From positions 553,138 through 617,137 of the forward strand of contig CBDDCY010000012.1 of assembly GCA_965226435.1 (NCBI GenBank): a stretch of DNA of 64,000 nt. The letters run 5' to 3'. A program made the translations under genes and the position numbers. This stretch comes from Bryobacterales bacterium. Lineage in GTDB: Bacteria > Acidobacteriota > Terriglobia > Bryobacterales > UBA6623. Below, one piece after another: positions 5,180-28,825 of the stretch (its first letter is position 1; each line of letters starts with the position of its first letter). The notes under the pieces were generated by a model. The model did not search any database, was not told the origin of the DNA, and was given only the letters and a program-made list of their open reading frames with translations.

Positions 5180-6445
5180 TCACGACAAGACAAACGAGGT
5201 CTCTCGCCCGGCGGCGCGCGCCACGGCTTCGGCCGCCTGATAGCCGCTCCGCACGGCTCCCTCCATCGTTGCCGGCCAGCCGGTTCGGGTCCAATCGCCG
5301 GCGAGAAAAACATTCGGGTACTTCGTCGCCGTAGGCGGGCGGTGCGCCTCCAGGCCCGGGGCAATCGAATACGTCGCTCGGGCTTCCTTGATCACATGGG
5401 CCTTGACCAATTTGGCGTCGTGGGCCGCGGGGAAAAACTCGACCAGCTCCCGCCGCGCCGTTTCGATGATCGCCTCTCGGGACAGCGGCACCAAAGACCG
5501 CGAAGCGCTGACGACGCATTGCACATAGTTCGCCGACTTGCGAAACATCCACTGCATCGTGCGGTCGAGCAGGACGGCGTGAGGCAGATCGGTCACTTCG
5601 CGGTCGAACCAAAGATGAATTCCCGTGATCGGCGAATGCTCGAATTTCTCGAGTGGCAGCGCAAGTTCGGGAACAAGCGCATTCACGCGCTCAAACGGGA
5701 CGGCGCTTATGTAAAAGTCCGCCGCGCGATCGTTTGGGTCGATGCGCTCGACCGGCGAGCGCAAGTGAAAACGAACCCGCTCGCCAAACCTCTCCGCCGA
5801 CCCCGCCGAGTAAAGCTCGCCGAGCGGCACGGCGGGGATGCCCATTTCGTAGCTCTCACGTGTCGCCATCAAACCTTCCAAGAAGACCTGAAACGCCGGG
5901 CGAGCCGAGGCGCGCTCGGGATCTTCATTCAGCGCGCTCACCAGAATCGGCCTCCAAAAACGCTCGACGGCATTCCCCGCGGCTCCCTTCGACGCCAACC
6001 AATCAGCCATCGTGACGGTGTCGAGATCGGCCCGGTTTCGCTCACGCCGCATGGCGCCCAGCGCTCTGAAGATCGAGCGTTTGTCAGCGAAAGTCAGCCC
6101 CTTGAAACCGAGCAACGATCCGAGAAGATGCGCCGGCGCGGGCAGCCGGCCCGGTTTCAGGATATCCGTCGCGCCGCCGGGACGAACGAAGTACAACCGA
6201 TCATAGAAGCGAATCTTTTCTTCCACCCCGCCGCGCCGGTAGAAATCCAATAGGTTCGTAAAGCAGCGCAGCAAGACATGCTGGCAGTTGTCGATGTGTT
6301 CGGAATCTTCCGCGGCGGGGTTGAGGGGAAACGACGTCGCGCGGCCCCCGAGAAAGGGGCGTGCTTCGTGGAGCTCGATCTCGAAACCGATCGATCCAAG
6401 AGCGGCCGCGGCGGCCAGCCCGGCAAGCCCGCCTCCGACGATCAC
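5180..6445 (-). CDS. hpnE: Hydroxysqualene dehydroxylase (FAD-dependent amine-oxidase/phytoene-desaturase fold)
   Basis: N-terminal dinucleotide-binding motif VVIVGGGLAGLAAAAAL..ELHEARPFLGGRA. It lies directly downstream of hpnD and hpnC. I place the start at the GTG at 6445, overlapping the hpnD stop; the ORF-track Met at 6688 would overlap hpnD by 240 nt. Confidence 0.8.
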   Translation of the reverse strand: MIVGGGLAGLAAAAALGSIGFEIELHEARPFLGGRATSFPLNPAAEDSEHIDNCQHVLLRCFTNLLDFYRRGGVEEKIRFYDRLYFVRPGGATDILKPGRLPAPAHLLGSLLGFKGLTFADKRSIFRALGAMRRERNRADLDTVTMADWLASKGAAGNAVERFWRPILVSALNEDPERASARPAFQVFLEGLMATRESYEMGIPAVPLGELYSAGSAERFGERVRFHLRSPVERIDPNDRAADFYISAVPFERVNALVPELALPLEKFEHSPITGIHLWFDREVTDLPHAVLLDRTMQWMFRKSANYVQCVVSASRSLVPLSREAIIETARRELVEFFPAAHDAKLVKAHVIKEARATYSIAPGLEAHRPPTATKYPNVFLAGDWTRTGWPATMEGAVRSGYQAAEAVARAAGRETSFVLS

Positions 6446-7326
6446 TACGCGGGGTATGGCGGCGCTCCTCCGGTCAATCGCAGCTTCAGCGCTTGGACGA
6501 CGATCCACACCTTTTCGAAATCGCTCAATCGGGCGCGGCTCGTGAAGACATCGTAGCCGCGGCCGCGAATGCGCCGCAAGATACCGTAGTAGATCGAAAT
6601 CATGGCCCACAGCGAGGGGCGCCCGGTCGGGCTGACCATGCCGAGCAGCGGCGCGGCTTCGGCGTAATATCGGTTGGCGCGCTCCCACTCGAAGGCCATC
6701 AACTTTTCAAACCCTTCTCCCGGACGGCCCGCGAGCAAATCCTCGGCGCTGACTCCGAACCTTGCGAGGTCTTCCTGGGGCAGATAGATGCGTCCCATGC
6801 GGGCGTCTTCGGGAATGTCTCGCAGGATGTTGGTGAGCTGAAAGGCCACGCCGCATTTTTCGGCCAAGCGAAGCGCGTCAGGCGAGTCGAACCCCCAGAC
6901 GTGAATACAAGTCATGCCGACGACCGAGGCGACCTGATAGCAATAGCGGTAGAGCTCGTCGAAGGTCTTGGGCTGTCGCGGAACCAAGTCCGAGCCCACG
7001 CCATCGATCAGTTCGAAAAAATATTCGGGCGGAATACGGTAGCGTTTGACCGTGTCGTGAAAGGCGGGCAGGATCGGGTTGTCGCCGTAACGCCCTTCGA
7101 GCGCTTGTTGGAGTCCGTGTTTCCAATCGGCAAGCGCCGCGCGGCGAGCCGCTACCGGCGGTTCGGTCTCGTCGCTGATGTCGTCGGCGTACCGCATGAA
7201 CGCATAGATGGCGCACATGGCGGTCTTTTGTTCGCGGGGAAGCAGCACAAAGGAGTAGTAGAAATTCCTTGCCCGGCGGCGAGCGATGCGCCGACAATGC
7301 TCGTACGATTCTTCGAGGGGAGGCAT
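6445..7326 (-). CDS. hpnD: Presqualene diphosphate synthase (squalene/phytoene synthase family)
   Basis: SQS/PSY family motifs YAFMRYADDISDE and YCYQVASVVG..NILRDIPEDARMGRIYLP. Position between hpnC and hpnE. Confidence 0.85.
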   Translation of the reverse strand: MPPLEESYEHCRRIARRRARNFYYSFVLLPREQKTAMCAIYAFMRYADDISDETEPPVAARRAALADWKHGLQQALEGRYGDNPILPAFHDTVKRYRIPPEYFFELIDGVGSDLVPRQPKTFDELYRYCYQVASVVGMTCIHVWGFDSPDALRLAEKCGVAFQLTNILRDIPEDARMGRIYLPQEDLARFGVSAEDLLAGRPGEGFEKLMAFEWERANRYYAEAAPLLGMVSPTGRPSLWAMISIYYGILRRIRGRGYDVFTSRARLSDFEKVWIVVQALKLRLTGGAPPYPA

Positions 7327-7339
7327 AAAACTGCCTGTC

Positions 7340-8320
7340 CTAGATAGGGCTGATTTCCCGCGCCCGGGCCGGGTGGGTCAACAGCCTGCGCGTCGCCACG
7401 CGGAGCAACAGCGATAGCCGACCGACTTTGCCGAGTTTGGGCCGCTGTCTTATGGTGTCGTAGTCTTGGCGGCGAATCAACTCCAGAATCGCCAAGCCGC
7501 CGCGGCTGAATAGTTCCAGGTCCACCGCCAAGCGACGGTCGACTTGATCGGCCAACGGGAGCCCCTTGCGGAACAGTCGCTCGGCGTCGTCGACGAGGCT
7601 TCGAGTTATTGCCCGGAACTCGGGACGAGCCTGCCCGCGCTGTAAATCCTCGTCGAGCATGTCGAGCGAGTAGTGATGTGATTCCATGCGGTCGAGCGGG
7701 ATGTAGACTCGGTCGATCGCCCGGTCGCACGCGACGTCTTGCCAAAAGTTGGTCAATTGCAAGGCGGTGCAAGTGAAGTCGGAGAGGCGTCGTCGGTCGT
7801 CGTCGGTGTAGCCGCAAAGGTGCAGCACGAGCCGGCCGACGGGGTTGGCCGAATAGCGGCAATATTCCAGAAGCTGTTCGTCATTGGCGTAGCGGGTTAC
7901 GGATTGGTCTTGGACAAAGGCGCTAATCAAATCGGCAAAGGGCTCTTCGGGGATGTCGTGTTTTTTGACGGTTTCGCGGAGCGCCACGTAAACGGGATGC
8001 TTGGCCCGGCCGCTATAGAGCGCGGCCAGCTCTTCACGCCACCACCCGAGCAAAACCAGACTGCGCTCGGTGTCGCCCATCTCGTCGCCCAGGTCGTCCG
8101 CCCAGCGGCAGAAGGCGTAGACGTTGAAGAAATCCTGATGGAGATGCGCGGGCAGCAGCCGACTGACGAGCTGAAAGTTTTCATAGTGGGAGCGAGCCAG
8201 CCGCCGCGTGTAGTCGAGAGAATCGTCGAGAGACCAGGCGGGAAATTCCGTACCCACGGCTGCGACAAAATCAGCGGGCTGAAGGAAGGGTTTCACGACC
8301 GGTGCGGCAACTGGGGACAT
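7340..8320 (-). CDS. hpnC: Hydroxysqualene synthase (squalene synthase-like)
   Basis: Motifs YAFCRWADDLGDE and QLTNFWQDVACDRAIDRVYIP. The start is taken at the Met of MSPVAAPVVKPF (8320); the upstream 117 codons of the ORF are Arg/Pro-rich and look non-coding. Confidence 0.8.
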   Translation of the reverse strand: MSPVAAPVVKPFLQPADFVAAVGTEFPAWSLDDSLDYTRRLARSHYENFQLVSRLLPAHLHQDFFNVYAFCRWADDLGDEMGDTERSLVLLGWWREELAALYSGRAKHPVYVALRETVKKHDIPEEPFADLISAFVQDQSVTRYANDEQLLEYCRYSANPVGRLVLHLCGYTDDDRRRLSDFTCTALQLTNFWQDVACDRAIDRVYIPLDRMESHHYSLDMLDEDLQRGQARPEFRAITRSLVDDAERLFRKGLPLADQVDRRLAVDLELFSRGGLAILELIRRQDYDTIRQRPKLGKVGRLSLLLRVATRRLLTHPARAREISPI

Positions 8321-8373
8321 TGGGTCGCGCAGGCGACGCCGCGATCCGACCAAGCAAGAGCGCTCTTCCACCG

Positions 8374-9435
8374 CTACGGCAGAATCGCTGTTTTCAGATG
8401 GCCGTTGTGGCTCATCATTTCGCGGAAAACCGAGAGCAGATCGGACAGCGGCGCTTCGTTGATGACGAAATCGGCCGAGCGCAGGTCGCGTCGGCGAATG
8501 ATTTCGAGGGCCTGGCGGATATGCCGCGGGGTGTGGTGGAAGCTCGACTTGAGCGTAACCTCGGAGTAGTGAATCAGCGAAGTGTCGATCGGTACGTGGC
8601 TGTTGCCGGGACAACCGCCGAAGAAGTTGACGGTCCCGCCGCCGCGCACCATCCCCATCGCCGCCTGCCAAGTATCGGGCGTGCCGACAGCTTCGATCAC
8701 GGCGTCCGCGCCGCGCCGCTCGTCGGTGAGGCCGCGCACTTGGGCCACCCAGTCGGCGCCGTCGGCGGCGATGACGAGTTCGTCGGCGCCCATGCGCTCG
8801 GCACGCTCAAGCTGCGTCGGGCGGCGGCCGATAGCAATCACGCGCGCGCCGCTGAGGTGCGCCAATCGCACGAACATCAGCCCGATCGGACCGAGCCCGA
8901 TCACCGCGACCGTGTCTCCTTCGTGAATCGCGGTTTCCTCAATGCCCCGCATTACGCACGCCAGCGGCTCGACCATCGCCGCGTCGCGATAGGCAACTCC
9001 GTCGGCGATCTCGTGGGTATTGCAAGCAACAATCGGTCCCGGAATGCGAACGTACTCCGCATAAGCGCCGTTATTGAACAGCAGGTTTTCACAAAGGTTT
9101 TGTTGATCCCGCGTGCAGGGATAGCACTGCCGGCAAGGCGCCGAATTGGCCGCGACCACTCGCTGCCCCACTTGGAAGTTTTCCACTTCCGAACCTACCG
9201 CCACGATGTCGCCCGCCAGCTCATGCCCCAGCACCGCCGGAGGCTGGATCATGCGCGCATGGTAACCCCGCCGAAACACCTTCAAGTCGGTGCCGCAGGT
9301 CAGAGCCACCTGAACCCTCACCAAGATGTCGTTGGGTCCCGCGGACGGCACGGGAACCGGCTCAATGCGGAGTTCCTCTTTGCCGTACAACATCGCGGCC
9401 ATCATGGTCTGTTTCACGTTCGAATTCCTCAACAA
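8374..9435 (-). CDS. Zn-dependent medium-chain alcohol/polyol dehydrogenase (MDR family), paralog 2
   Basis: Catalytic Zn ligand region CGTDLK...GHELAG, structural Zn cluster CRQCYPCTRDQQNLC, and Rossmann motif VIGLGPIGL. It is 12 nt downstream of paralog 1. The exact start is uncertain (MLRNSNV or MMAAMLYG). Confidence 0.8.
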   Translation of the reverse strand: MLRNSNVKQTMMAAMLYGKEELRIEPVPVPSAGPNDILVRVQVALTCGTDLKVFRRGYHARMIQPPAVLGHELAGDIVAVGSEVENFQVGQRVVAANSAPCRQCYPCTRDQQNLCENLLFNNGAYAEYVRIPGPIVACNTHEIADGVAYRDAAMVEPLACVMRGIEETAIHEGDTVAVIGLGPIGLMFVRLAHLSGARVIAIGRRPTQLERAERMGADELVIAADGADWVAQVRGLTDERRGADAVIEAVGTPDTWQAAMGMVRGGGTVNFFGGCPGNSHVPIDTSLIHYSEVTLKSSFHHTPRHIRQALEIIRRRDLRSADFVINEAPLSDLLSVFREMMSHNGHLKTAILP

Positions 9436-9447
9436 ACGCTTGCGCCG

Positions 9448-10530: not shown

Positions 10531-11250
10531 CTACACGTCAAATTTCGCGCGGCTGAAAAACGCCGCCAACGCAACGGCCGCCAGCTCGGAGTCGGCCTTG
10601 AGCCGTCGCAAGCTCTTCCAACAACGCGGGCGCGCTATGATTTGGGCCGCCACGCGCCAACCCGAAAACGTTCCGTCGGATCGTCGCGCCCGATTAAGGT
10701 CGATCGGGAATGACGCCTCGGCCTCATCACTGATCACGCGGACGCAGAAAAACGGCAATTTCCGTGCCGCGGCTTCCGCTGCAACCGCCGAGGCTTCCAT
10801 CTCGACGGCATCCGCCCTGAGTCTAAAAAGCTCCCTTTTTCCGCGAGCCGTTTGGACAACCTCATCGACGGTCAACAAAGAGCCGTGCGCAGGCTTCCGC
10901 CCTCCCGACCAAGTCGGTAACTTTACAGCATACTCCAGTCGCGGCTCGCGCTGTATGACACGTGTGGCAATGAAAACGTCCGCAAGAGAAAGTGTTTCAG
11001 CGAGGGCACCCGCGAATCCAGTCGAAATCACGGCTGCAACCGGCTGCTCGGCGCACGCGCGGCGCACAGCACACCCCGCGTTTTCTCGCCCCGGCCCGTG
11101 GGCGACGAGCAAGGCCGGACCCGCCCTCAAGGTAGTTCGCGCTTTCCAACGAAGCCCGGCTGGGGACGTCGACGGTTCGACGTCAGGGAACGCCGCGAAC
11201 TCCCGCCGGTCGGCCCCGACGACTAGCAATACCGGTTGTTCTGAAACCAT
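10531..11250 (-). CDS. hpnG: Hopanoid-associated nucleosidase/phosphorylase (PNP_UDP_1 family)
   Basis: About 240 aa phosphorylase-family protein (LLVVGADRREF..., EMEASAVAAEAA motif). It is flanked by hpnA and overlaps its 3' end by 28 nt. Confidence 0.7.
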   Translation of the reverse strand: MVSEQPVLLVVGADRREFAAFPDVEPSTSPAGLRWKARTTLRAGPALLVAHGPGRENAGCAVRRACAEQPVAAVISTGFAGALAETLSLADVFIATRVIQREPRLEYAVKLPTWSGGRKPAHGSLLTVDEVVQTARGKRELFRLRADAVEMEASAVAAEAAARKLPFFCVRVISDEAEASFPIDLNRARRSDGTFSGWRVAAQIIARPRCWKSLRRLKADSELAAVALAAFFSRAKFDV

Positions 11251-12272
11251 CGAATCGCTCGCTCGAGAGCTGCTTCCAGCGGCCCGCCCGCGAAGCCGAT
11301 TTCCCGCTCGGCCTTCGCGGACTCCACAAACATTTTCTTGCGGGCCATGCGGACGGCATCGAGCGGTGCGCGCGGCGGTCGGCCGGTGAGCCGGGCGGCG
11401 GCGGTCGAGACAGCCCCATAAGCATAGGCCGCGGCGTAGGGAATGCGGATCTTCGGCGCGGGCCGGCCGCTGATCGTCGACAACGCCTCGAAGATCTCCC
11501 GCAGCGTCATGTTTCGTCCGCCCAATATGTAACGCTCCCCGCTCACGCCTTGTTCCATGGCCGCCAAGTGACCGCGGGCAACATCACGAACATCGACCAT
11601 ATTCAAGCCGGTGTCGAGATAGGCCGGCATTGCGCCCCTGAGGAAATCGACGATGATTTGCCCCGTCGGCGTTGGCTTGCGGTCGCCCTCGCCAACCGGC
11701 GCCGTGGGGTTGACGACGACGACGGGCAATCCGTCGGCCGCGAATTCCAGCGCGACTTGCTCCGCTAGAAATTTGGAGCGCTTGTAGGCTCCTTCCATTT
11801 CCGATAGTGAGACAGGCGTGTCTTCGTTGCCCGATTCGGCGGTGCCCGGTACGCCGATGCAGCCGACCGTCGAGGTGTAGACGACGCGCTTGACGCCGGC
11901 GGCGCGGGCCGCCTGAAGAATGTTTCGGGTGCCCTGGACATTCGAGGCGTAAATTTCAGCCGGGTTCGGCGCCCACAACCGATAATCCGCGGCGACGTGG
12001 AATAGCTCGGTGCAGCCGTCGATCGCGGTTCGAAGCGACGCCGGGTCGCGCAGATCGCCGATCACCGGCTCGACCGCAAGATCCACGATACCCGCGCGGT
12101 CGCTCGACGGCCGCACCAAAGCTCGGACCGAGCGACCTTCGTCCACCAACAGGCGGGCGATGTGGGAGCCGAGGAATCCTGAAGCGCCGGTAAGGAACGT
12201 CACAATGCGCGGGAGCGGAACTGCCGGCACGCTGCATCCCGTACGCCGACCTAGGGATTGCGCGGCCTTCAA
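11223..12272 (-). CDS. hpnA: Hopanoid-associated NAD(P)-dependent sugar epimerase/dehydratase-family protein
   Basis: SDR extended-family motif FLTGASGFLGSHIARLL and catalytic YxxxK (YKRSKFLAE). Cluster position. An alternative downstream start is possible. Confidence 0.7.
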   Translation of the reverse strand: MKAAQSLGRRTGCSVPAVPLPRIVTFLTGASGFLGSHIARLLVDEGRSVRALVRPSSDRAGIVDLAVEPVIGDLRDPASLRTAIDGCTELFHVAADYRLWAPNPAEIYASNVQGTRNILQAARAAGVKRVVYTSTVGCIGVPGTAESGNEDTPVSLSEMEGAYKRSKFLAEQVALEFAADGLPVVVVNPTAPVGEGDRKPTPTGQIIVDFLRGAMPAYLDTGLNMVDVRDVARGHLAAMEQGVSGERYILGGRNMTLREIFEALSTISGRPAPKIRIPYAAAYAYGAVSTAAARLTGRPPRAPLDAVRMARKKMFVESAKAEREIGFAGGPLEAALERAIRWFQNNRYC

Positions 12273-12347: not shown

Positions 12348-12812
12348 CTAGCACGCACCAGGGTTCTCGTTGGGATTGATAACCTCGATACCCTCCGCCA
12401 TTGCCGCATCCAGTAACTCGTCATCAGCGCAAACGAAAGAGAATCCTTGAACGCCCACTCCGGTGCTTAGAGCGATGCAGCCGGCTAGTTGCATCGCGTC
12501 GTAGGCGCGAAGGGGATGACGGGCGATGATTGCAACCGCCTCTTCCAGGACCGACGCCGTCAAGGGCTGGACGAGAAACAAGCCTTGCAGGTCGGAATCC
12601 AGTTGTGTCAGAACATTGGCAGCTTCAGCACTCGAAACGTCTCCTCCCCGTTCCCGGCGGCGGACCGCCGAATGAAACTCCACTCGGGACACTTCGAGGA
12701 TCGCAAAGTGATCGCGCTCGGGGTCTCGCAACAAATCAGCAACCCGGCCCGACCCGATTTCTTGAATGTAGAGCTTTGCGAGCGCGCTTGTGTCCAAATA
12801 GTAGACCGCCAA
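12348..12812 (-). CDS. vapC: PIN-domain ribonuclease toxin (VapC-like)
   Basis: N-terminal YYLDTSAL (first acidic residue), plus ILEVSRVEF and RAYDAMQLA acidic positions. 154 aa. TTG start immediately after the TAA stop of the upstream ORF. Confidence 0.75.
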   Translation of the reverse strand: MAVYYLDTSALAKLYIQEIGSGRVADLLRDPERDHFAILEVSRVEFHSAVRRRERGGDVSSAEAANVLTQLDSDLQGLFLVQPLTASVLEEAVAIIARHPLRAYDAMQLAGCIALSTGVGVQGFSFVCADDELLDAAMAEGIEVINPNENPGAC

Positions 12813-13529
12813 TTACCGTCGCCCTTCAAGAATGGTTTCGGATAAGGGCCTGCCTTTGATTCGTATCGGACGGAATCGCTTTGGCTCCGGTCTCCGCGAG
12901 ACAAGGTTTGCGAAGTCGGGATGTCCCCGGTTGAGCCGTACGGTTGTGGTTGGATACATCGGCGCCTTGGGGTTATGAATCTTTGCGGTGAGTACGAGAC
13001 CGCAGTCGGTTGCCCGCCGCAGAATCCGGTTCCGTTCGGCGCCATCAACGGTCCAAGAGAAACCTCGGCCGGGGAGGTACGTGTCTCGGAACCATTTCAG
13101 AGCAACAAAGCGCCTTTCCGGGCTGCTTTCCGCTTCGTCCAGCGCCTCGATCAGATTCTTGATTCGGCTCTCGGATAGGTTTGGCGGACCCTCAACAAGG
13201 CTGTCGATTACTTCCCTCGAAAGCTCACTGTCGCCTGCCTCACGATCAGTGGTGGACGCGGCTTCATCTCTTCGTTCGTAACCAATCAATGCCTGGCACT
13301 CAGCCGGTTTCCAGTATTCAGCGGCTGCATTGCGTCGGATCCTGCGAACCCCGCGGTTTGTGCCCGGACGCACCAACAAAACTTGCGGTTCTAGGCCCTT
13401 CGGGGCCAAGTGACGAAGATCCGCCAACTCAGCCGGCAGGTCGCTGGTGTTACGCAGGGCCTTCAAGGCATTCTCAATATCCACTTGGATCTCCGCGATC
13501 GTTTTTTTCGGTTTGGGAATACGCTTCAT
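12813..13529 (-). CDS. Hypothetical 238-aa protein in the antitoxin position of the PIN module (atypically long)
   Basis: Its stop abuts the vapC start. The C-terminal tail is RPIRIKGRPLSETILEGRR. A central region (RFVALKWFRDTYLPGRGF...LVLTAKIHNP) could be a winged-helix-like fold. I recognise no family. It is preceded by an AT-rich promoter-like region. Confidence 0.5.
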   Translation of the reverse strand: MKRIPKPKKTIAEIQVDIENALKALRNTSDLPAELADLRHLAPKGLEPQVLLVRPGTNRGVRRIRRNAAAEYWKPAECQALIGYERRDEAASTTDREAGDSELSREVIDSLVEGPPNLSESRIKNLIEALDEAESSPERRFVALKWFRDTYLPGRGFSWTVDGAERNRILRRATDCGLVLTAKIHNPKAPMYPTTTVRLNRGHPDFANLVSRRPEPKRFRPIRIKGRPLSETILEGRR

Positions 13530-13800: not shown

Positions 13801-14919
13801 CTACGACAGCACCCAGCTCAGCATTTTCAAACTGTCGCCGAGCCGTGCGTTCACGCCCAAGGCCGCCGAGGGCTCGTAGCCGCAATGCACCAAACAGTGC
13901 TCGCAACGTTCATCGTTGCCGCGGCCGTAGTTTTGCCACGGCGTTTGATTCATCAATTCGTCGAAGGTCTCCCAATGGGCGTCGGTGATCAGGTAACAGG
14001 GACCCTTCCAACCGCGGACGTTGTAGGTCGGGTTGCCCCAAGCGGTACAAGGCAACTCGCGCTCGCCTTTCAAGAATTCCAAATACGCCGGCGTCGAGGT
14101 CAGCCGAAAGCGCCGAAAGATACGATCGATGTCTCGAAACTTCTCGTGCACTTCTTCCCGCGTCAAGAAGATCTCACGGGTGCCCACGGCCGCGTAACCG
14201 TAGGCGGGCGACAGCATATGCCCGTCGACGCCGAGCGGTTCGAGAAATTCATAGAGCGCTTCGATCTCCTTCATGTCCGTCTCGCGGTAGACGGTCGTGT
14301 TGGTGCAAACCATGAAGCCGGCCTTCTTCGCCGCGCGGATACCCTCGATCGCCTCGTCGAATACGCCCTCGCGCTCCACGGCCAGATCGTGCGTTTCTCG
14401 TAATCCATCCAAGTGGACATTGAAAAATAATCGATTGCACGGCTGAAACTCGTGCAGCCGCTTGACCAGAAACATGCCGTTCGTACAAAGGTAGACGTGA
14501 CGTTTGCGTTCTAAAATACTCGCCGCTAACGGCCCGATTTGTGGATACATCATCGGCTCGCCGCCGCATATCGAAACAATTGGCGCGCCGCACTCATCCA
14601 CGGCGGCGAGGCATTTTTCAAGCGGAATGCGCTCGGTGATCGTCTCGTCGTATTCGCGAATGCGACCACAGCCGGTGCAGGTCAAGTTGCAGGCGTGCAG
14701 GGGCTCGAGCATCAGCACCAGCGGGAAGCGCCTTCGCAAGTAGGGATGCGGAACCGCGTCACCGGAAATCCGCGTCGGGGCCGAGCCGTTCGCCAGAATC
14801 GGAAACGGGCCGGCACCGGCCGCCGGCGTCGGATCGCCCTGCCAACGAGCCGGAGGTCGCAGCCTATTCTTGGTGATGTAGGCGCCAAGCCGCACGGCGG
14901 TTTCGAGGGGAATGCGCAT
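13801..14919 (-). CDS. hpnH: Adenosylhopane synthase (radical SAM)
   Basis: Radical-SAM cluster motif CNLTCTGC. 372 aa, with the C-terminal Cys-rich region (CEHCLVHCGYE) typical of HpnH. Adjacent to shc. Confidence 0.85.
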   Translation of the reverse strand: MRIPLETAVRLGAYITKNRLRPPARWQGDPTPAAGAGPFPILANGSAPTRISGDAVPHPYLRRRFPLVLMLEPLHACNLTCTGCGRIREYDETITERIPLEKCLAAVDECGAPIVSICGGEPMMYPQIGPLAASILERKRHVYLCTNGMFLVKRLHEFQPCNRLFFNVHLDGLRETHDLAVEREGVFDEAIEGIRAAKKAGFMVCTNTTVYRETDMKEIEALYEFLEPLGVDGHMLSPAYGYAAVGTREIFLTREEVHEKFRDIDRIFRRFRLTSTPAYLEFLKGERELPCTAWGNPTYNVRGWKGPCYLITDAHWETFDELMNQTPWQNYGRGNDERCEHCLVHCGYEPSAALGVNARLGDSLKMLSWVLS

Positions 14920-15042: not shown

Positions 15043-16986
15043 CTACAGCGCCTTGGCGTACTCGGCCATGGCCAGTAACGGAAAATACTGCCGATAGAGA
15101 TCGTACTTCAAATAGAAAACGCCGGGGAAACCGGTTCCGGTGTAGTTCCATTCGCTCCACGAGCCGTCGGGACTCTGTGTTTCGAGCAAGTAACGGATCC
15201 CCGCCTCGACGCTGCCCGAGCGATTGTCTCCCGAGGCCAACAGTCCCAGCAACGCCCATGCCGTCTGTGAGGCCGTGCTCTCTCCCTCGGTCTTCTGTCT
15301 GGGATCATCGTACCCGGCGCAGCTTTCTCCCCAACCGCCGTCGGCGTTCTGGATCGAACGCAGCCATTCCCCGGCGCGGATGATGTAGGCCTCGCGGGGA
15401 TCCTCGCCCGCCGCCGCCAAACCCCGTAGAGCGAAACACGTGCCGTAGATATAGTTCACACCCCAACGCCCGAACCAGCCGCCGTCGTCTTCCTGCGTTC
15501 GTTTGAGAAACTCGACTCCCCGCCGCACGGCCGGATGGGACTCTCCCGGGCCGACCGTGCATAGCGCGTCCAAAACCCGCCCGGTCAAATCCGGGCAGGT
15601 CGGGTCGAGCATCGCGTTGTGGTCGGCGAAGGGAACATGGTTGAACAGGCGATTGTTGTTGTCCACGTCAAACGCGCCCCAACCGCCGTCCTTCGACTGC
15701 ATGCTGAGCAGCCATTTCACTCCGCGCCGTACGGCCGCGCGTTGAGCATCGAGGTTCGTCGCCTTGGCATGGCTCAACGCCAAAAGCACCTGCGCGGTGT
15801 CGTCGGTATCGGGATAAAACTCGTTCGCGAATTCGAAGTACCAGCCTCCCGGCTCGCCTGCTCGGTTTCTCACCGCCCAGTCGCCCGGCCGGCGCACTTC
15901 CTTCGTCAGCAACCAGTCGGCCGCGCGGCGCAAAGCCCCGCCGACCTCTTCGGAAGGATTCGGGAAAGCCGTTCCGACGGCGGCCGCCGCCAAGCCCGTG
16001 TCCCACACCGGCGACAGGCAGGGCTGTAGGCGCATCGTGCCGCTGTCGTCGTCGCCCTGCTCGATGATCAGCTCGTCGAACTTCTCGATCTGTCGCCGCA
16101 GCAACGGGTCGTCAAGCCCGTAGCCCAGCTCGGTCAGCGCCATGATGCAATTCATCATGGCCGGGAAGATCGCGCCCAGCCCGTCGGAATGCTCAAGCCT
16201 TTCGATCATCCAACGCGATGTGGCGCGAACCGCCTTGCGGCGCGCCCTTCGAATCCCAACGCGTTCCCAAACCTTGAGCGCGCGGTCGGCCAATAAGAAG
16301 AGATTGCCGGGGTCAAACAGATTGCCTTGCGCCCGCTGAGCATCCTTCGAAAGCTCATCCAAATCAATACCCGTCGGCATGGGGCGAGAAGCTCCCAACG
16401 CGCCCAAAATCGCCAACGGAGCGATAATGGCGCGCGTCCATGACGACATGTCATAGACGCTGAACTTGGCTTTGTCGGGAAGCAGGAATAGCTCGGGGGG
16501 GATCGTCGGCGTCTTGGCGCGGTCGTAGAGCCCGAAGAAACTTAGATAAATCTTGGTATAGCTGTTGGTCGCCTCGACGCCGCCCAACTGGAGAATCCGC
16601 CGCTTGGCGTGAACCAGCCGCTCGTCGTCGGCGCCGTACCCGGTTAGCCGCAGGGCCAGATAGGCCTTGACCGAAGCGCTGACATTCACCGGCCCGCCCG
16701 GATAGATGTTCCAACCGCCGTCGGGAAGCTGCCGGCTGAGAATGTAGCGGGCGGCCCGTGCGATTCGATCGACGGTCGGAGGCCCCCAAGACCCCGCTCG
16801 GGGCGGGTAGAGCCACAATTGCAGCAGGATGTAGTCGGATTCAAGCGAGGTGTCGGCTTCCAGTTCACCGATCCACCAGCCGCCGGGCGACTGGCGGGCG
16901 AGCAAGCAGCCGGCGGCCGCGCGCACGGCCGAGTGGATCTCGGAATGTCGATCCGGAGCGAGAGTTTGTACCGCCGCTGTACTCAA
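15043..16986 (-). CDS. shc: Squalene-hopene cyclase
   Basis: 647 aa. Catalytic DxDDTA motif (YPDTDDTAQVLLAL). Repeated QW-type motifs (QSPDGSWSEW, QNADGGWGES, QEDDGGWFGRWG, QSKDGGWGAF). Confidence 0.95.
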   Translation of the reverse strand: MSTAAVQTLAPDRHSEIHSAVRAAAGCLLARQSPGGWWIGELEADTSLESDYILLQLWLYPPRAGSWGPPTVDRIARAARYILSRQLPDGGWNIYPGGPVNVSASVKAYLALRLTGYGADDERLVHAKRRILQLGGVEATNSYTKIYLSFFGLYDRAKTPTIPPELFLLPDKAKFSVYDMSSWTRAIIAPLAILGALGASRPMPTGIDLDELSKDAQRAQGNLFDPGNLFLLADRALKVWERVGIRRARRKAVRATSRWMIERLEHSDGLGAIFPAMMNCIMALTELGYGLDDPLLRRQIEKFDELIIEQGDDDSGTMRLQPCLSPVWDTGLAAAAVGTAFPNPSEEVGGALRRAADWLLTKEVRRPGDWAVRNRAGEPGGWYFEFANEFYPDTDDTAQVLLALSHAKATNLDAQRAAVRRGVKWLLSMQSKDGGWGAFDVDNNNRLFNHVPFADHNAMLDPTCPDLTGRVLDALCTVGPGESHPAVRRGVEFLKRTQEDDGGWFGRWGVNYIYGTCFALRGLAAAGEDPREAYIIRAGEWLRSIQNADGGWGESCAGYDDPRQKTEGESTASQTAWALLGLLASGDNRSGSVEAGIRYLLETQSPDGSWSEWNYTGTGFPGVFYLKYDLYRQYFPLLAMAEYAKAL

Positions 16987-17084: not shown

Positions 17085-18083
17085 TCATAGATTAGCGATT
17101 TGAGTCAGTTCGCCTTGATGCCCGGCCAACTCCGAAGGCAGCGGAAAACTGACGTCTTCCTCAATCACTTCGACTTCCTCGACCCGCGAAAACCCGAATC
17201 GCGCAAGCTCGTCCACGATACCCCGAACCAGCACTTCCGGCGCCGACGCTCCGGCCGTCACCGCGACGCGCCTGACTCCGCTGAACCACTCCTCGTCGAG
17301 TTGCGACTTGTCGTCGATCAGATGTCCGAGCACGCCCAGGTTTTCACCCACTTCGACAAGCCTTCTCGAATTCGAGCTGTTTTGCGAGCCCACGACCAAT
17401 AGCAAGTCGGCTCGCGGCGCGACGCGCTTCACCGCTTGCTGACGGTTTTCGGTGGCGTAACAGATATCCTTCGCCGGCGGCCCCTGAATGTCGGGGAAGC
17501 GCCGCCGCAACACTTCGATGATGACCCCGGCCTCGTCGAGGCTCAGCGTCGTCTGCGTCAAATAATAGACGTTGGCCGGGTCGGGGACCTCGACCTGCCG
17601 CGCTTCCTCGGGCGACGAGACAACGATAGTGCGCTCCGGGGCCTCTCCCATCGTCCCGATCACTTCGTCATGGTCGCGGTGGCCGATCAGCAAAATCGTA
17701 CCCCGCGTCGCGGCGAAGCGGACGGCTTCCAAATGAACTTTCGTCACCAGCGGACAAGTCGCGTCGATCACTTGCAAGCGTCGCCGCTCGGCCTGTTCAC
17801 GGACCTCGGGCGCGACGCCGTGGGCGCTGTAAACCGCGCGTCCGCCTTCGGGAACCTCATCGAGTTCGTCCACGAAAACCGCGCCGCGCGAAGCCAGGTC
17901 GCTGACGACGTGGCGATTGTGGACGATCTCTTTGCGGACATAAATCGGCGGTCCGTAGACCTGTAGGGCCAGCTCGACAATGTCGATTGCGCGCACCACG
18001 CCGGCACAAAATCCGCGCGGCTTGAGCAGATAGACGATCTTTTCGCCACCGTTTACCCAAGTGGGGGAAACGTTTTCAGCCAT
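17085..18083 (-). CDS. ispH: 4-hydroxy-3-methylbut-2-enyl diphosphate reductase
   Basis: LytB family motifs: PRGFCAGVVRAI, SAHGV, ATCPLVTKVH, VVGSQNSSNS. The start is taken at MAENVSP (18083). Confidence 0.9.
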   Translation of the reverse strand: MAENVSPTWVNGGEKIVYLLKPRGFCAGVVRAIDIVELALQVYGPPIYVRKEIVHNRHVVSDLASRGAVFVDELDEVPEGGRAVYSAHGVAPEVREQAERRRLQVIDATCPLVTKVHLEAVRFAATRGTILLIGHRDHDEVIGTMGEAPERTIVVSSPEEARQVEVPDPANVYYLTQTTLSLDEAGVIIEVLRRRFPDIQGPPAKDICYATENRQQAVKRVAPRADLLLVVGSQNSSNSRRLVEVGENLGVLGHLIDDKSQLDEEWFSGVRRVAVTAGASAPEVLVRGIVDELARFGFSRVEEVEVIEEDVSFPLPSELAGHQGELTQIANL

Positions 18084-18216
18084 CGAATTTTCCGATCGAG
18101 AGCAATAGCAAAATATAGCCCGCCGCCCGCCGCATCGCAAAGGCGTCTCTATAGCTTACAGTAGCGGCTCGGGGGTTACGGCGGAAACCTTCAATAGCAA
18201 CCGACGATATCGCGAA

Positions 18217-19371
18217 TTAACCCCCGTTGTGCATCCGTCCCGCCCGGTCGAGACGGTATCGCCGCCCCGCCCACTCGACGCGGTTCCCGAGAAAACTCGC
18301 GCACCAAACCCCGAACGCGAAAAGGTCGGCCACGAAAATCCAATGACCCCGCCGATCGACCAATTCGGACCCTAGCGCCCCCCGACCGACCGACCAAGCC
18401 GCGACTCCCCGCAGCGCCAGGCAAATCAGCGCCGCGACCGCCGCCGGGGCCTGATTCCCCGCCAACCCGAGAGTCGCGAGGCTCCAGACCGTGCCGTGTG
18501 TGAAGAGCAGCCCCGCATGTCCCCAAGGCCGCGAAACGCGCACCGTGCGCGACCACCGCAGCCAATGCCGCCCGACGTCGCGCCACCCCGCATCCGGCAC
18601 AACGGTTTCCACCACGCGCCGGGCCAAGACAACGCGCCGACCTTGCGCGGCCAGCCGACTTCCCAATTGGTAGTCATCAGCCAAGAACGGCCGCAGCGCC
18701 TCGAAGCCGCCAAGGGCATCGAGGTCGGCGCGGCGAAGCGCCATCGTCGCGCCCAACGCAAAGCGCATCCCTTGGAAACCGCGCGCCGCCAGCACCTGCC
18801 CTTGAAACTCCGTCGACACCCACAGAGCTTCGAGCAATGACGCAAAGCCCTGGGCGGGGCGGGCGCGGTACAAGCAGCTCACCAGACCGACCGCGGGGTC
18901 ATCCAACTCGGCGACAACTTCCCGGAAATAACCCGACTCGACGGTGATATCGGCGTCGTTGACCAAAAATACGTCGTGGTGGGCGCGGCGCGCCAGTTCC
19001 TCGAGCCGCCATACCTTGGCGTTGCCCGCGGGCGCGGGTCCGCACACAACGATCTCGATCGGACGGTCGGAAAATTCGGCGGCCAAGCGAGAGACCACCG
19101 CAACGGCCGGGTCGTCAGCCGTCTCGACACCGAAAAGCAGCTCGAACTCGGGATAGTCCTGTGTAGCGTGCGCTCGGAGGTTTTCTTCCAACGACCCGCC
19201 GTTGCCCTGGAGAGGCTTGAGCACCGACAGCGCCGGAGTCGCTCCGCCGACACGCGGCCCGCCGCGCCAAAAGCGCCACGCAAGCCATGTGACCGCCAAG
19301 TAATGGAACGACGCGCAAACCGTCAAAGCGACGGCAACGAACGAGAGAGGATCGCTCACCAACTCCGTCAC
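18217..19371 (-). CDS. hpnI: Hopanoid glycosyltransferase (GT21/ceramide-glucosyltransferase-like)
   Basis: N-terminal TM helix, then SVLKPLQG...QDYPEFELLFGV, a D-x-D region (LVNDADI), and C-terminal TM helices. It lies directly downstream of ispH and shc. Confidence 0.65.
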   Translation of the reverse strand: MTELVSDPLSFVAVALTVCASFHYLAVTWLAWRFWRGGPRVGGATPALSVLKPLQGNGGSLEENLRAHATQDYPEFELLFGVETADDPAVAVVSRLAAEFSDRPIEIVVCGPAPAGNAKVWRLEELARRAHHDVFLVNDADITVESGYFREVVAELDDPAVGLVSCLYRARPAQGFASLLEALWVSTEFQGQVLAARGFQGMRFALGATMALRRADLDALGGFEALRPFLADDYQLGSRLAAQGRRVVLARRVVETVVPDAGWRDVGRHWLRWSRTVRVSRPWGHAGLLFTHGTVWSLATLGLAGNQAPAAVAALICLALRGVAAWSVGRGALGSELVDRRGHWIFVADLFAFGVWCASFLGNRVEWAGRRYRLDRAGRMHNGG

Positions 19372-19378
19372 CGGGTGC

Positions 19379-19741
19379 CTACGTGGAAACCAACATCACG
19401 CCGCAGGTTACCAACAACGCACCCGCCCAGCGCCGCCGGGAGATCGCTTCTCCCAAGACCGTTCTCGCCAGCAACATCTCGACCACGTAACCCGCCGCCG
19501 TCGCCGGTACGGCGAAGCTGACGTCGGCGATCGAAAGCAGCGCCATGAACGCAAAGAACGACAGGGCATAGCCGACCAGCGAAAGCCAAATCACCGCGGA
19601 GCCCCCGACGCGGCGCGCCTCGCGCGCCAGCGACCGCGGACGAAAATCGTCGATCAGTCCCAAGCGCCGCATCCCGGCGGCTTTCAGGAGATCGCCGGCG
19701 ACCGTCCCCCCGACAACCAACAGCAGCAAGAAGAACTTCAA
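19379..19741 (-). CDS. Small EamA/DMT half-transporter (4 TM), ArnE/ArnF-like
   Basis: 120 aa and hydrophobic, with 4 predicted helices. Its start overlaps the upstream paralog by 4 nt, and its stop is 7 nt from the hpnI start. Confidence 0.6.
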   Translation of the reverse strand: MKFFLLLLVVGGTVAGDLLKAAGMRRLGLIDDFRPRSLAREARRVGGSAVIWLSLVGYALSFFAFMALLSIADVSFAVPATAAGYVVEMLLARTVLGEAISRRRWAGALLVTCGVMLVST

Positions 19742-20145
19742 GCCGCGCCGCCTGGGGGTCGATCAGCCGTTGACGCCGGGGTCGATCCGACCACGCCCAC
19801 CCCGAAGGTAATCAGCACCGTCCCGGCCCAACGTGCGGCGGAAACGGTTTCTCCGAGCACCAACCAACCGAGCACCGCGACCAGTACGTACCCGATCGAC
19901 GTCACCAGCAAGACATAGCTGAGGTCGGCCCGACTCAGCACCAAGGCGTGAGCGACGAAGAAAATCAGCAGCAGGACGACGCCCGCCGTCACCCAGGGGT
20001 TGATGAACGCCCGCAGCCCCCCTTGAACCATGGCCAAGGGAGAGTAAGAGGCGATGTCACCCACCTGTTGCATGCCGTAACCGAGCACGATGTTGCCCGC
20101 GGCGTTCGTGACGATCACGATGAGCAGAAGGTAGGCGGTTTTCAT
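19738..20145 (-). CDS. Small EamA/DMT half-transporter (4 TM), ArnE/ArnF-like
   Basis: 135 aa with 4 predicted helices (MKTAYLLLIVIVTNAAGNIVLGYGMQ...). Paralog of the downstream gene. Confidence 0.6.
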   Translation of the reverse strand: MKTAYLLLIVIVTNAAGNIVLGYGMQQVGDIASYSPLAMVQGGLRAFINPWVTAGVVLLLIFFVAHALVLSRADLSYVLLVTSIGYVLVAVLGWLVLGETVSAARWAGTVLITFGVGVVGSTPASTADRPPGGAA

Positions 20146-20329: not shown

Positions 20330-21178
20330 CTACACCTCGTCCAAGCACGAAAGCCACCAGGGGTGCATGCCGTTGTATTGCAACTTTTCGGGGATATGCT
20401 CGAAACGGTCACAGGCCTGGGCGACTTCCTCTTTCGTGACGATCCCCTCTCGAATGGTCTCGAGCAAGGCGTCTTTCCAAACTCCCGTCAGAGGATGTTC
20501 CGGGTAGCGCCAGGGCTGCGTGCGTTGCCTCGTGTAGTGCAGCAGGCGCGTCTTCCCCGGCTCGTATTCGTTGAGGTGGTTCCAATAGTGCGTGATCTCT
20601 TGAGGACGAAACTTGAGCAGATACCCCACCTGGGCCGCGCCATACCGCTTGCGCTCCTCCTCTTGGGGGCCCGTCTTGATGAAGGTTCGGATTTCCTCGA
20701 CCGTGGGCCAGATCCCGCGGGCCTTCTCGCAATCGATCAGCATTACGGAAGCCTCGGGGTACCCCTTTCGATAGGTACACCACATGCAGCTTTCCTGATC
20801 GGGATATTGGCTGTCGATTTCCCAGGGTTCGCGAATATCACCGAAAACCATTTGGTCGGCATCGAGATAGATGGCCCAGCCCTGGTAGTCGCGGTACTCG
20901 GGGATGCGCCAGCGTTGAAACGAAAAGCCTGTCGCGGCGCCGAAGTCCCGAAGTTCCGGGCTATCGGTAAGGTGGTGAAATTCGATTTGCGCGGAATCCG
21001 CGGCGTGTTTGCGAATCGAATGCTCCAGAATTTTCCGAGGAATTTCGGCACACTCTTCGGTGCCGATGCAGACATGAATGGGCAATTCAACCACTCGCTT
21101 GGCCGCGCCCGCCGACTTCCGCCATTTTTTGATCAACGAGGAGAACACGGTAGAATTGTACCGTACAAAAACCAACAA
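20330..21178 (-). CDS. GT8-like glycosyltransferase
   Basis: DxD motif in IYLDADQMVFGDI, and LLHYTRQRTQPW resembling the GT8 C-terminal H..KPW region. 282 aa. It is the first gene of the minus-strand array. Confidence 0.55.
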   Translation of the reverse strand: MLVFVRYNSTVFSSLIKKWRKSAGAAKRVVELPIHVCIGTEECAEIPRKILEHSIRKHAADSAQIEFHHLTDSPELRDFGAATGFSFQRWRIPEYRDYQGWAIYLDADQMVFGDIREPWEIDSQYPDQESCMWCTYRKGYPEASVMLIDCEKARGIWPTVEEIRTFIKTGPQEEERKRYGAAQVGYLLKFRPQEITHYWNHLNEYEPGKTRLLHYTRQRTQPWRYPEHPLTGVWKDALLETIREGIVTKEEVAQACDRFEHIPEKLQYNGMHPWWLSCLDEV

Positions 21179-27544: not shown

Positions 27545-28825
27545 TTGGAGAGGACATGGATGAACGACAAGGAATTGAGACGGGGCGAGGTACTGGGCCG
27601 GGTGAAGCGAGGCGAGTTGAAGCTGAGCGAGGCGGCGCGGATACTCGATATCAGTTATCGCCAGACCAAGCGGATCTGGAGGCGCTACAGCGCGGGAGGG
27701 ACAAAAGCATTGAAGCACGGCAACGTGGGCCGGGTATCGAACCGCGCCAAGCCGGCGGAAGTTCGCAAGCGAGTGCTGCAACTGGTGCGCGAACACTACT
27801 CCGGCGAGCCGCACGAGCGCTTCGGGCCGACGCTGGCGGCCGAGCATTTGTGGACAGACCACGATCTGAAACTATCGGTGCGAACACTGCGGCTCTGGAT
27901 GCTCGCCGAGGGCCTGTGGAGCCGCCGCCGCAAGCGCCGGCCGCATCGCTCGCGGCGGCGGCGTAAAGCGCACTTGGGCGAGCTGATCCAGGTCGACGGT
28001 TCGCACCACGAGTGGCTCGAAGCGCGCGGGCGGAAAGGTTGCCTGATGAACTTCGTCGACGATGCGACCGGTCTGGCGCTGTGCCGTTTCTCGAGCGAGG
28101 AAACGACTTGGGCGGCGGCCGATCTGCTCGAAGCCTGGGTGCGTCAATACGGCGTTCCGAAGGCGTTGTATTGCGACTGGAAGAACGTCTACAAGCGCCG
28201 GCCAACGTCGCGTGAAGCGCTGGAAGGCATCGAGCCCGAGACGCAGTTCGGACGCATGTGCGCCAAGCTCGGCATTGGTATCATCGCCGCTTCGTCACCG
28301 CAAGCGAAGGGCCGCGTGGAGCGCCATCACGGCACCCATCAAGACCGCCTGATCAAGAAGATGCGGCTCAAAGGCATTGCCGATTACGAGGCGGCGAACC
28401 GCTATCTCGACGAGCAGTATCTGCCAGAGCACAACGCCAAGTTCGCCTCTGAGCCGTCAGCGGGAGCGGACTTTCATCGGCGCTTATCGAAGCGTTTGGA
28501 CTTGAAGTGGGTGTTTTGCTTGGAGGGAGAGCGGGTGGTGTCCAACGACCTGGTGGTACGTTTCGAGAACCGTTTTCCGCAGTTGAAACCGCAGCGCAAT
28601 CAGGCTCTGGGCGCAGGCGCGAGAGTAACCGTGCAGCAAGCGCGCGAGGGCGAGTTGCGGGTGGTGTTCGAGGGGAAAACGGTGGCGTTCGACGAGATCG
28701 CCAAGCCGCTCCCCAAGGTGCGGCCGGAGCCGAAACCGCGCCTGGCGCCGCAGCCGCGCACACCGCCGGCGAATCACCCTTGGCGCGCGCCGTTGAAGCC
28801 GAAAAAACGGGCGGCGACCGCGTGA
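27545..28825 (+). CDS. ISNCY-family (rve/DDE) transposase
   Basis: N-terminal HTH (LKLSEAARILDISYRQTKRIWRRY), then FGPTLAAEHL..., GELIQVDGSHHEWLE, and an rve core ending QAKGRVERHHGTHQDRL. A more likely start is MNDKELRRG at 27560. Confidence 0.8.
   Translation: MERTWMNDKELRRGEVLGRVKRGELKLSEAARILDISYRQTKRIWRRYSAGGTKALKHGNVGRVSNRAKPAEVRKRVLQLVREHYSGEPHERFGPTLAAEHLWTDHDLKLSVRTLRLWMLAEGLWSRRRKRRPHRSRRRRKAHLGELIQVDGSHHEWLEARGRKGCLMNFVDDATGLALCRFSSEETTWAAADLLEAWVRQYGVPKALYCDWKNVYKRRPTSREALEGIEPETQFGRMCAKLGIGIIAASSPQAKGRVERHHGTHQDRLIKKMRLKGIADYEAANRYLDEQYLPEHNAKFASEPSAGADFHRRLSKRLDLKWVFCLEGERVVSNDLVVRFENRFPQLKPQRNQALGAGARVTVQQAREGELRVVFEGKTVAFDEIAKPLPKVRPEPKPRLAPQPRTPPANHPWRAPLKPKKRAATA

Follow-up and report, generated by a model that had tools for sequence, protein, structure and literature searches.

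A pair of small SMR/EamA-like membrane proteins linked to hpnI as candidate flippase for amino-sugar hopanoids

The stretch of DNA analyzed here (the window, 64,000 nucleotides (nt) of a Bryobacterales bacterium, contig CBDDCY010000012.1, positions 553,138 to 617,137) carries a hopanoid gene cluster on its minus strand. The cluster opens with two overlapping genes for small membrane proteins, drug/metabolite transporter (DMT)-A and DMT-B (A and B in the following), followed by hpnI, which encodes a glycosyltransferase (GT). Relatives of the pair adjoin, or are fused to, genes of the hpnI/hpnJ/hpnK pathway in several lineages. The A/B family is the best-supported current candidate for the protein that moves amino-sugar hopanoids across the inner membrane. 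The first three genes are:

19738..20145, minus strand: DMT-A, an SMR (small multidrug resistance)/EamA-like half-transporter of 135 amino acids with four transmembrane (TM) helices, ATG start, first gene of the operon.
19379..19741, minus strand: DMT-B, paralogue of A, 120 amino acids, four TM helices, TTG start, translationally coupled to A.
18217..19371, minus strand: hpnI, GT2/GT21 glycosyltransferase of the bacteriohopanetetrol (BHT) glucosamine pathway, 384 amino acids, GTG start, 7 nt 3' of B.

An earlier reading of the window from its letters alone (the sequence-only reading) had described the two open reading frames (ORFs) as paralogous EamA-like proteins of 120 and 135 amino acids with a 4-nt overlap. 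This was confirmed by the ORFs, by the identity of A and B (33% across 117 amino acids, E=1e-17), and by their scores with the Pfam EamA model (PF00892, cutoff 28.2), which B exceeds with 34.7 bits and A just misses with 26.8 bits; the A-like protein of metagenome locus L087 reaches 30.0 bits. On the coding strand, the overlap reads TTGA and consists of the B start codon TTG and the A stop codon TGA. The 7-nt spacing between B and the hpnI-like gene holds as well, and the encoded glycosyltransferase passes the HpnI model (TIGR03472, 321.8 bits, cutoff 310; Glyco_transf_21, 157 bits). The statement that the pair lies downstream of hpnI had to be reversed: it is downstream in plus-strand coordinates only, whereas transcriptionally it is located upstream (5') and opens the operon. 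A and B are real genes and not chance ORFs, because B is 100% and A 94% identical to database proteins (P0121 and a protein of locus L001, respectively) and both families are conserved, with 45–70% identity kept across hundreds of genomes. The closest loci stem from metagenome-assembled genomes of Bryobacterales (Acidobacteriota). Promoter and terminator scans around A/B gave counts not above those in shuffled sequence.

The gene order was compared among the 80 best related genome loci. A precedes B in all 80, and the 4-nt start/stop overlap is retained in most. Directly upstream of A, hpnJ is found in 45 loci (TIGR03471, 777 bits, cutoff 578), and an HpnI gene directly follows B in about 48, at or near the TIGR03472 cutoff (306–367 bits for the HpnI homologues from six sampled loci). 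After correction for small overlaps, the complete order hpnJ-A-B-hpnI is present in approximately 42 loci, and hpnI and/or hpnJ adjoin the pair in approximately 51. The order hpnJ-A-B-hpnI is ancestral; the clade of the window lost the upstream hpnJ and had its pair joined directly to ispH-shc-hpnH. In a neighbor-joining tree of A and B, 28 of the 29 loci without an adjoining hpn gene form one clade, the other being the single locus L059; the linkage was therefore lost once or twice and not 29 times. The unlinked clade keeps the pair intact (56–69% identity), and the unlinked pairs stand between convergent housekeeping genes resembling rluB, scpB, and scpA, as read from the cluster sequences. 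A natural A–B fusion was sought among the 80 loci and none was found, the long ORFs being upstream extensions of the B frame.

Two Bryobacterales genomes of the unlinked clade deviate. One carries a 1.9-kb insertion between A and B (L037:10360-12229), another a premature stop in A near codon ~50 (L022:10001-10150), and decay of the pair may be under way in this clade. In 21 of the 80 loci, a conserved protein of approximately 242 amino acids is encoded immediately 5' of the hpnJ-A-B-hpnI module, in approximately 700 nt directly upstream of hpnJ (L020, L023, L025, L032, L035, L052-L057, L062, L064, L065, L067, L072, L074, L076-L078, and L080). Judged by eye, it has a signal peptide-like hydrophobic stretch at the N-terminus; no NCBIfam model matched, and the LolA_like model of Pfam did so only faintly (E 0.039). 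A role as periplasmic lipid carrier within the module is possible. A complete hpnJ-A-B-hpnI module also occurs in L065, whose contig (JBLNCW010000130.1) was binned as Rhodospirillales; in the tree, it is nested among acidobacterial sequences, which reflects either horizontal transfer or mis-binning.

For relatives beyond these loci, 1.84 billion representative proteins were searched with a profile. This retrieved 3124 proteins at E≤1e-3 but only 20 at E≤1e-30; by these matches, the family is a distinct subfamily within the broad space of small EamA proteins. The representative search also revealed proteins of approximately 275 amino acids that combine an A-like and a B-like half (A::B fusion). 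All of the 188 matches in this fusion family for which the source names an organism are cyanobacterial. In Synechocystis sp. LKSZ1, the fused gene is followed by HpnI (320 bits); in Woronichinia, it follows HpnK (TIGR03473, 286 bits, cutoff 233); in Gloeothece verrucosa, approximately 5.5 kb lie between it and hpnJ-hpnI (hpnJ, 812 bits; a GT21 gene).

Further genes stand beside the fused gene. An ORF of approximately 283 amino acids is located directly upstream of the A::B gene in three cyanobacterial genera (L081:6988-7836, L083:9198-10052, and L085:9134-9988); it contains two E-x-x-H motifs and gives faint Ferritin_2 and Rubrerythrin matches, which is diiron oxygenase-like. Homology of this ORF to the GT8-like gene of 282 amino acids in the window was considered and rejected (17–18% identity). 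In Synechocystis sp. LKSZ1, a creatininase/MftE-like gene (L085:12154-12966) directly follows hpnI, with a weaker match to 3-dehydro-scyllo-inosose hydrolase IolN. Its product may be a head group-modifying amidohydrolase that replaces HpnK.

A second kind of fusion was found in metagenomes. Contigs reached via the unfused A-like protein P0257 carry hpnK (301 bits), A, and an ORF of 541 amino acids, with a 4-nt overlap at each junction. This ORF comprises a B-like half (residues 1–120) and a full-length HpnI (residues 160–536, TIGR03472 390 bits). A metagenome scan with the B::HpnI fusion of L087 as query retrieved 14 loci with the arrangement (hpnJ)-(hpnK)-A-B-hpnI. A precedes B in all 14, as determined with our own A and B hidden Markov models (HMMs). 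The full series hpnJ-hpnK-A-B-hpnI occurs in the independent metagenomic lineages L092, L093, L099, and L101, and the B::HpnI frame is uninterrupted in L087, L088, and L089 (59–66% identity to the L087 query). Taken together, the hpn linkage recurs across phyla at 43–94% protein identity and includes two kinds of fusion. The coupling to a lipid glycosyltransferase, to which the sequence-only reading had drawn attention, is thus not accidental: it is kept in Acidobacteriota, Cyanobacteria, and unassigned metagenomic lineages, in-frame B::HpnI fusions included. The survey of hpnI neighbors that was called for considerably strengthens the idea of a dedicated flippase. A grouping of the proteins with generic exporters that stand apart from GT genes was also looked for and not found, and the idea survives. 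In a published listing of the Leptospirillum ferriphilum hopanoid cluster, an EamA-like transporter stands without comment beside a glycosyltransferase, a B12 radical S-adenosylmethionine protein, IspH, and squalene-hopene cyclase (PMC12654047).

An alignment of 23 diverse A members showed a mean column identity of 62% and the invariant residues N14, H66, D74, Y77, E99, R105, and W106. The AlphaFold2 model of A (predicted local distance difference test score 86.9) and hydropathy indicate four long helices and a short amphipathic helix in loop 1. Foldseek placed this model closest to the SMR monomers EmrE and Gdx-Clo among the PDB folds (probability 1.0; target-normalized TM-score 0.6–0.74), followed by the halves of SLC35B1. 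Against PDB sequences, the A profile gave only marginal matches, to EmrE (E ~0.006–0.01), SLC35, and CST. In the profile alignment, Y77 corresponds to the tyrosine switch Y60 of EmrE, and S83-I-G85 to the fulcrum G65-V-G67. The central Glu of TM1 (E14 in EmrE) is absent: in the multiple alignment, this column holds the invariant N14 in A and T13 in B, with D17 of B one turn on. In the lipid-transporting SMR subtype (ArnE/ArnF), Asn often replaces the central Glu and the Tyr switch is kept (PMC9574504). The acidic residues of B lie in TM1 (D17) and TM3, on average about one Asp or Glu in each, and its TM1 motif TVAGDLLK resembles SVAGQLCQK of ArnE.

The assignment to known families is less close. 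Neither A nor B matched the Pfam SMR model (PF00893, Multi_Drug_Res) at E≤0.01, and no Hpn-named NCBIfam model (HpnA–HpnR) matched them. With the NCBIfam ArnF model (NF002816, cutoff 99), B scored 28.9 and A 16.9 bits; with the ArnE model (NF011625, cutoff 92), B scored 23.3 bits. Our own family HMMs gave 23.7 (A) and 26.5 bits (B) with E. coli ArnE, approximately 6 bits with ArnF, and 17.0 (A) and 10.6 bits (B) with EmrE. The weak profile matches of the pair include nucleotide-sugar and triose-phosphate transporter families, and the homologues bear the database names "EamA family transporter," "DMT-like permease," and "small multidrug resistance protein." The ArnE/ArnF likeness that had been put forward thus stands for size, pairing, translational coupling, and a remote homology to ArnE, whereas the scores are far below the cutoffs of the ArnE and ArnF models. 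The relation to ArnE/ArnF is therefore one of remote homology combined with analogy and not of membership or orthology.

The membrane topology was deduced from positive charges. In all 80 homologues of B, loops 1 and 3 are positively charged (7.6 Lys and Arg residues vs. 0.7 elsewhere), which places these loops in the cytoplasm and both termini outside. In the A::B fusions, the linker after TM4 (5.1 Lys and Arg) and loop 1' (4.7) are both rich in positive charges; between them lie TM1' and a conserved, hydrophobic, Pro-rich stretch of 13–15 residues. The Pro-rich segment would therefore cross the membrane and the halves would be antiparallel. Fusing even-numbered halves needs an inserted helix to preserve antiparallel topology (PMC9574504). 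A and B would form an SMR-like heterodimer of 4+4 TM helices, probably in the antiparallel arrangement that the charge pattern of the fused homologues suggests. An outside C-terminus of B fits its direct fusion to HpnI, whose N-terminal TM helix comes next and is followed by the catalytic domain in the cytoplasm.

According to their enzyme class, HpnI, HpnK, and HpnJ are cytoplasmic-side enzymes. HpnI generates BHT-N-acetylglucosamine, from which HpnK removes the acetyl group, and a ring contraction by HpnJ yields the cyclitol ether (PMC12583986). A/B very probably belongs to this hpnI/hpnJ/hpnK functional module. We infer, with a probability of roughly 0.55, that it flips the product of the HpnI pathway, that is, BHT-glucosamine-type lipids. 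For the wider claim, that the A/B, A::B, and B::HpnI forms represent a new hpn family and the first inner-membrane flippase dedicated to a glycosylated hopanoid, be it BHT-glucosamine, BHT-N-acetylglucosamine, or BHT cyclitol ether, we consider the odds to be even.

In the proposed scheme, the membrane-bound GT2 enzyme HpnI, with its active site on the cytoplasmic side, would attach N-acetylglucosamine to bacteriohopanetetrol in the cytoplasmic leaflet. The head group would be deacetylated, by HpnK where present, and with HpnJ converted further to the cyclitol ether. A polar cavity of A/B, open laterally toward the bilayer, could then accept the bulky, amine-bearing head group, with the hopanoid rings remaining among the lipids; the acidic residues of B (D17 and a Glu in TM3) may serve to bind the amine in its protonated form. 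Alternating access would bring the head group to the periplasmic leaflet, from which export systems could take the lipid to the outer membrane. Such a scheme would parallel the succession of ArnC (GT2), ArnD (de-acylase), and ArnE/ArnF (flippase).

Several observations weigh against this interpretation. The metagenome scan also matched 66 loci through the HpnI part alone, 47 of which have at least 900 nt upstream of hpnI; the pair is present in only one of these 47 (L110), 4.5 kb away and on the other strand. It is therefore a lineage-restricted addition to the hpnI/hpnJ/hpnK module and no general requirement. In 29 HpnI-matched metagenome loci, hpnJ adjoins hpnI, in many cases leaving no room in between. 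The unlinked Bryobacterales clade keeps its pair away from hpn genes, and no hpn gene adjoins the A::B fusion in Crocosphaera and Chroococcopsis. In the window, hpnJ was not found by tblastn, and no HpnK match occurred among the cluster ORFs scanned, a scan that did not include an hpnK-specific search across the whole window. The positive charges of A are distributed without bias (2.65 vs. 2.71 Lys and Arg), and the antiparallel arrangement rests on the fused homologues. In the AlphaFold2 model of one such homologue, the linker segment has low confidence; on 10-TM DMT structures, this model superposes poorly (TM-score 0.3–0.45). Finally, the B::HpnI fusion fits the role of an accessory subunit as well as a hand-off of the product to a flippase.

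Such an accessory role is the alternative that survives best, although we consider it unlikely. A and B would be membrane subunits of HpnI, together forming a metabolon; they would present the BHT acceptor, or stabilize and organize HpnI with HpnK and HpnJ in the membrane, without any transbilayer movement. The B::HpnI fusions and the coupling of hpnK, A, and B::hpnI by 4-nt overlaps indicate proximity to the enzyme and not transport. Moreover, the SD1 and SD3 Acidobacteria possess hpnI and hpnJ without hpnK (PMC5462960), and the organization of the pathway may differ accordingly. However, the fold and the residues, namely the Tyr switch and a polar central position in TM1, are those of alternating-access SMR/DMT transporters, and the clade with a pair unlinked from hpnI is explained more easily by an autonomous transporter. 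In addition, many HpnI enzymes do without such partners.

The transport of a soluble molecule connected to the pathway (an amino sugar, a cyclitol, a polyamine-like cation, or a by-product) is improbable, even though SMR/DMT relatives mostly move small charged metabolites (PMC9574504). The acidic residues in TM1 and TM3 of B, as in cation-coupled SMRs, and the weak matches to nucleotide-sugar and triose-phosphate transporters would suit such a cargo. A, on the other hand, has an Asn at the position of the proton- or cation-binding Glu, and the fusion to a lipid glycosyltransferase points to a lipid product. Furthermore, every known substrate of HpnI, HpnK, and HpnJ resides in the cytoplasm or is bound to the membrane, and no soluble import or export step is required (PMC12583986).

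The sequence-only reading had left two versions of a dedicated flippase. The one for a glycosylated hopanoid is favored here. The other, in which the pair flips a polyprenyl phosphate-linked sugar donor for periplasmic glycosylation in the manner of ArnE/ArnF, would agree with the remote ArnE homology (23.7–26.5 bits), with the weak NCBIfam ArnE/ArnF matches, and with the weak GT8-like gene directly upstream in the window. It is nevertheless very improbable, since HpnI is a GT2/GT21 nucleotide-sugar transferase, no GT-C/ArnT-like or polyprenyl-phosphate GT was found among the annotated neighbors in the window or the annotated loci, and the conserved partners are hpnI, hpnJ, and hpnK only. A generic drug/metabolite or SMR-type efflux pair that stands next to hopanoid genes by chance, as the database names and the 29 loci without an adjoining hpn gene might suggest, is just as remote and largely refuted by the synteny, given the cross-phylum hpnI/hpnJ/hpnK linkage with its two kinds of fusion, the confinement of unlinked cases to one clade and one locus, and the missing PF00893 match.

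The genes around A, B, and hpnI in the window are the following:

17085..18140, minus strand: ispH (HMBPP reductase), same operon; NF002189 451 bits, LYTB 301 bits.
15043..16986, minus strand: shc, squalene-hopene cyclase; TIGR01507 657 bits.
13801..14919, minus strand: hpnH, adenosyl-hopene transferase; TIGR03470 421 bits.
10531..12272, minus strand: hpnA (hopanoid-associated epimerase) and hpnG (phosphorylase); TIGR03466 471 bits and TIGR03468 111 bits, the latter below the cutoff of 187.
5180..8671, minus strand: hpnC, probable hpnD, and hpnE (squalene synthesis); TIGR03464 322 bits, TIGR03467 452 bits.
20330..21178, minus strand: weak GT8-like ORF, 282 amino acids, directly 5' of DMT-A; Glyco_transf_8 25.2 bits, cutoff 24.3.

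On the minus strand, the gene order is A, B, hpnI, ispH, shc, hpnH, two small genes, hpnA, hpnG, two genes for Zn-dependent dehydrogenases, hpnC, probable hpnD (ORF 6445-7326, SQS_PSY 277 bits), and hpnE. It is uncertain whether the GT8-like ORF is part of the A/B transcription unit; among close relatives, it is kept in L001 only, and its product may be a second glycosyltransferase working with the cluster. Also in L001, hpnJ is located on the strand opposite to that of the pair, approximately 8.5 kb upstream; the window is without hpnJ, and a rearrangement is possible. A gene for an ISNCY-family transposase (384 bits) lies at 27545-28825 on the plus strand, approximately 7 kb from the operon start. 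The two small genes between hpnH and hpnA (12348-13529, minus strand) encode a PIN-domain protein (154 amino acids) and an unannotated protein of 238 amino acids; the latter ORF occupies the same position in L002 and not in L001, which suggests a variable insert within the hopanoid cluster. The tandem Zn-dependent alcohol dehydrogenase paralogues between hpnG and hpnC (8374-10530, minus strand) are kept in L001-L009. They match the "unknown gene" tied to hpnCDE in a study on acidobacterial hopanoids (PMC5462960).

The A/B genes are real and conserved, and no name has yet been given to their family. In the open-access full-text literature searched (hopanoid flippase/EamA/SMR, hpnI/J/K, cyclitol ether), no function was assigned to it, and no flippase for hopanoid glycolipids was found, in line with what the sequence-only reading had stated. 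The acidobacterial genotyping paper (PMC5462960) does not describe the A/B genes, and a microsynteny study of 2025–26 names hpnL, hpnM, hpnS, and hpnT (periplasmic trafficking) and mentions no flippase, EamA, or DMT protein (10.1101/2025.07.29.667474). The head groups of composite bacteriohopanepolyols are bulky and charged and are assembled on the cytoplasmic face, but these lipids act largely in the outer membrane. If the proposed function is correct, A/B supplies the step that is missing after the head group has been made on the cytoplasmic side and before the lipid is exported to the outer membrane. The range of SMR-like lipid flippases would then reach beyond polyprenyl-phosphate carriers and include polycyclic triterpenoid lipids, and A/B would be a second, independent case of SMR-like proteins recruited to lipid flipping. 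The pair is compact and easily deleted, and its linkage or fusion to hpnI, hpnJ, or hpnK makes it a concrete, testable candidate. It also offers a new marker to predict acidobacterial and cyanobacterial producers of BHT-glucosamine and cyclitol ether. The naturally occurring A::B and B::GT fusions are of interest for the evolution of small dual-domain transporters and for a possible coupling of synthesis and translocation.

Among the known systems, HpnN (a resistance–nodulation–division protein), HpnL, HpnM, HpnS, and HpnT likewise have their genes in hopanoid clusters and have been proposed to act in lipid trafficking (10.1101/2025.07.29.667474), but they have no sequence relationship to A/B. 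HpnN and the proposed HpnM/S/T route concern the movement from the inner to the outer membrane, and for none of these proteins has a flipping of glycosylated hopanoids at the inner membrane been proposed. The 10-TM DMT/SLC35 transporters (YddG, LicB, and nucleotide-sugar transporters) share with A/B the EamA matches and weak profile or fold matches (SLC35B1, CST, LicB, TPT, and YddG). In contrast to their inverted repeat of 5+5 TM helices in a single polypeptide, the halves of A/B have four TM helices and are separate polypeptides, or are arranged as 4+1+4 in the cyanobacterial fusions. Closer are the paired SMRs with the EmrE/Gdx fold (EbrAB and MdtIJ), which resemble A/B in the 4-TM fold, the paired genes, and the inserted TM segment in fused halves. 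A and B differ from them in an extra amphipathic loop-1 helix and a length greater by approximately 20–30 amino acids, in the missing PF00893 match, in the Asn of A in place of the proton-coupling Glu, and in a context of lipid biosynthesis and not of resistance.

The comparison with ArnE/ArnF includes differences as well. A/B is found without an arnBCADT context and without an ArnT-like gene among the annotated neighbors, A does not show the charge bias that an ArnF-type partner should have, and the presumed lipid is a hopanoid polyol glycoside and not a polyprenyl phosphate. The E. coli arnE and arnF genes overlap by 1 nt instead of 4 nt. Fused A::B and B::GT forms are known for A/B. Both systems consist of two adjacent, overlapping genes for 4-TM proteins of approximately 110–135 amino acids that share their operon with the gene of a GT2 lipid glycosyltransferase and, for A/B in many lineages, that of a de-N-acylase. 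They have in common a non-acidic residue at the position of the central Glu and the conserved Tyr switch, and B resembles ArnE in the TM1 motif and in loops 1 and 3 rich in Lys and Arg (the ArnE loops being read by eye). In both cases, the cargo, as proposed here for A/B, would be an isoprenoid-derived lipid that bears an amino sugar and is synthesized at the cytoplasmic face.

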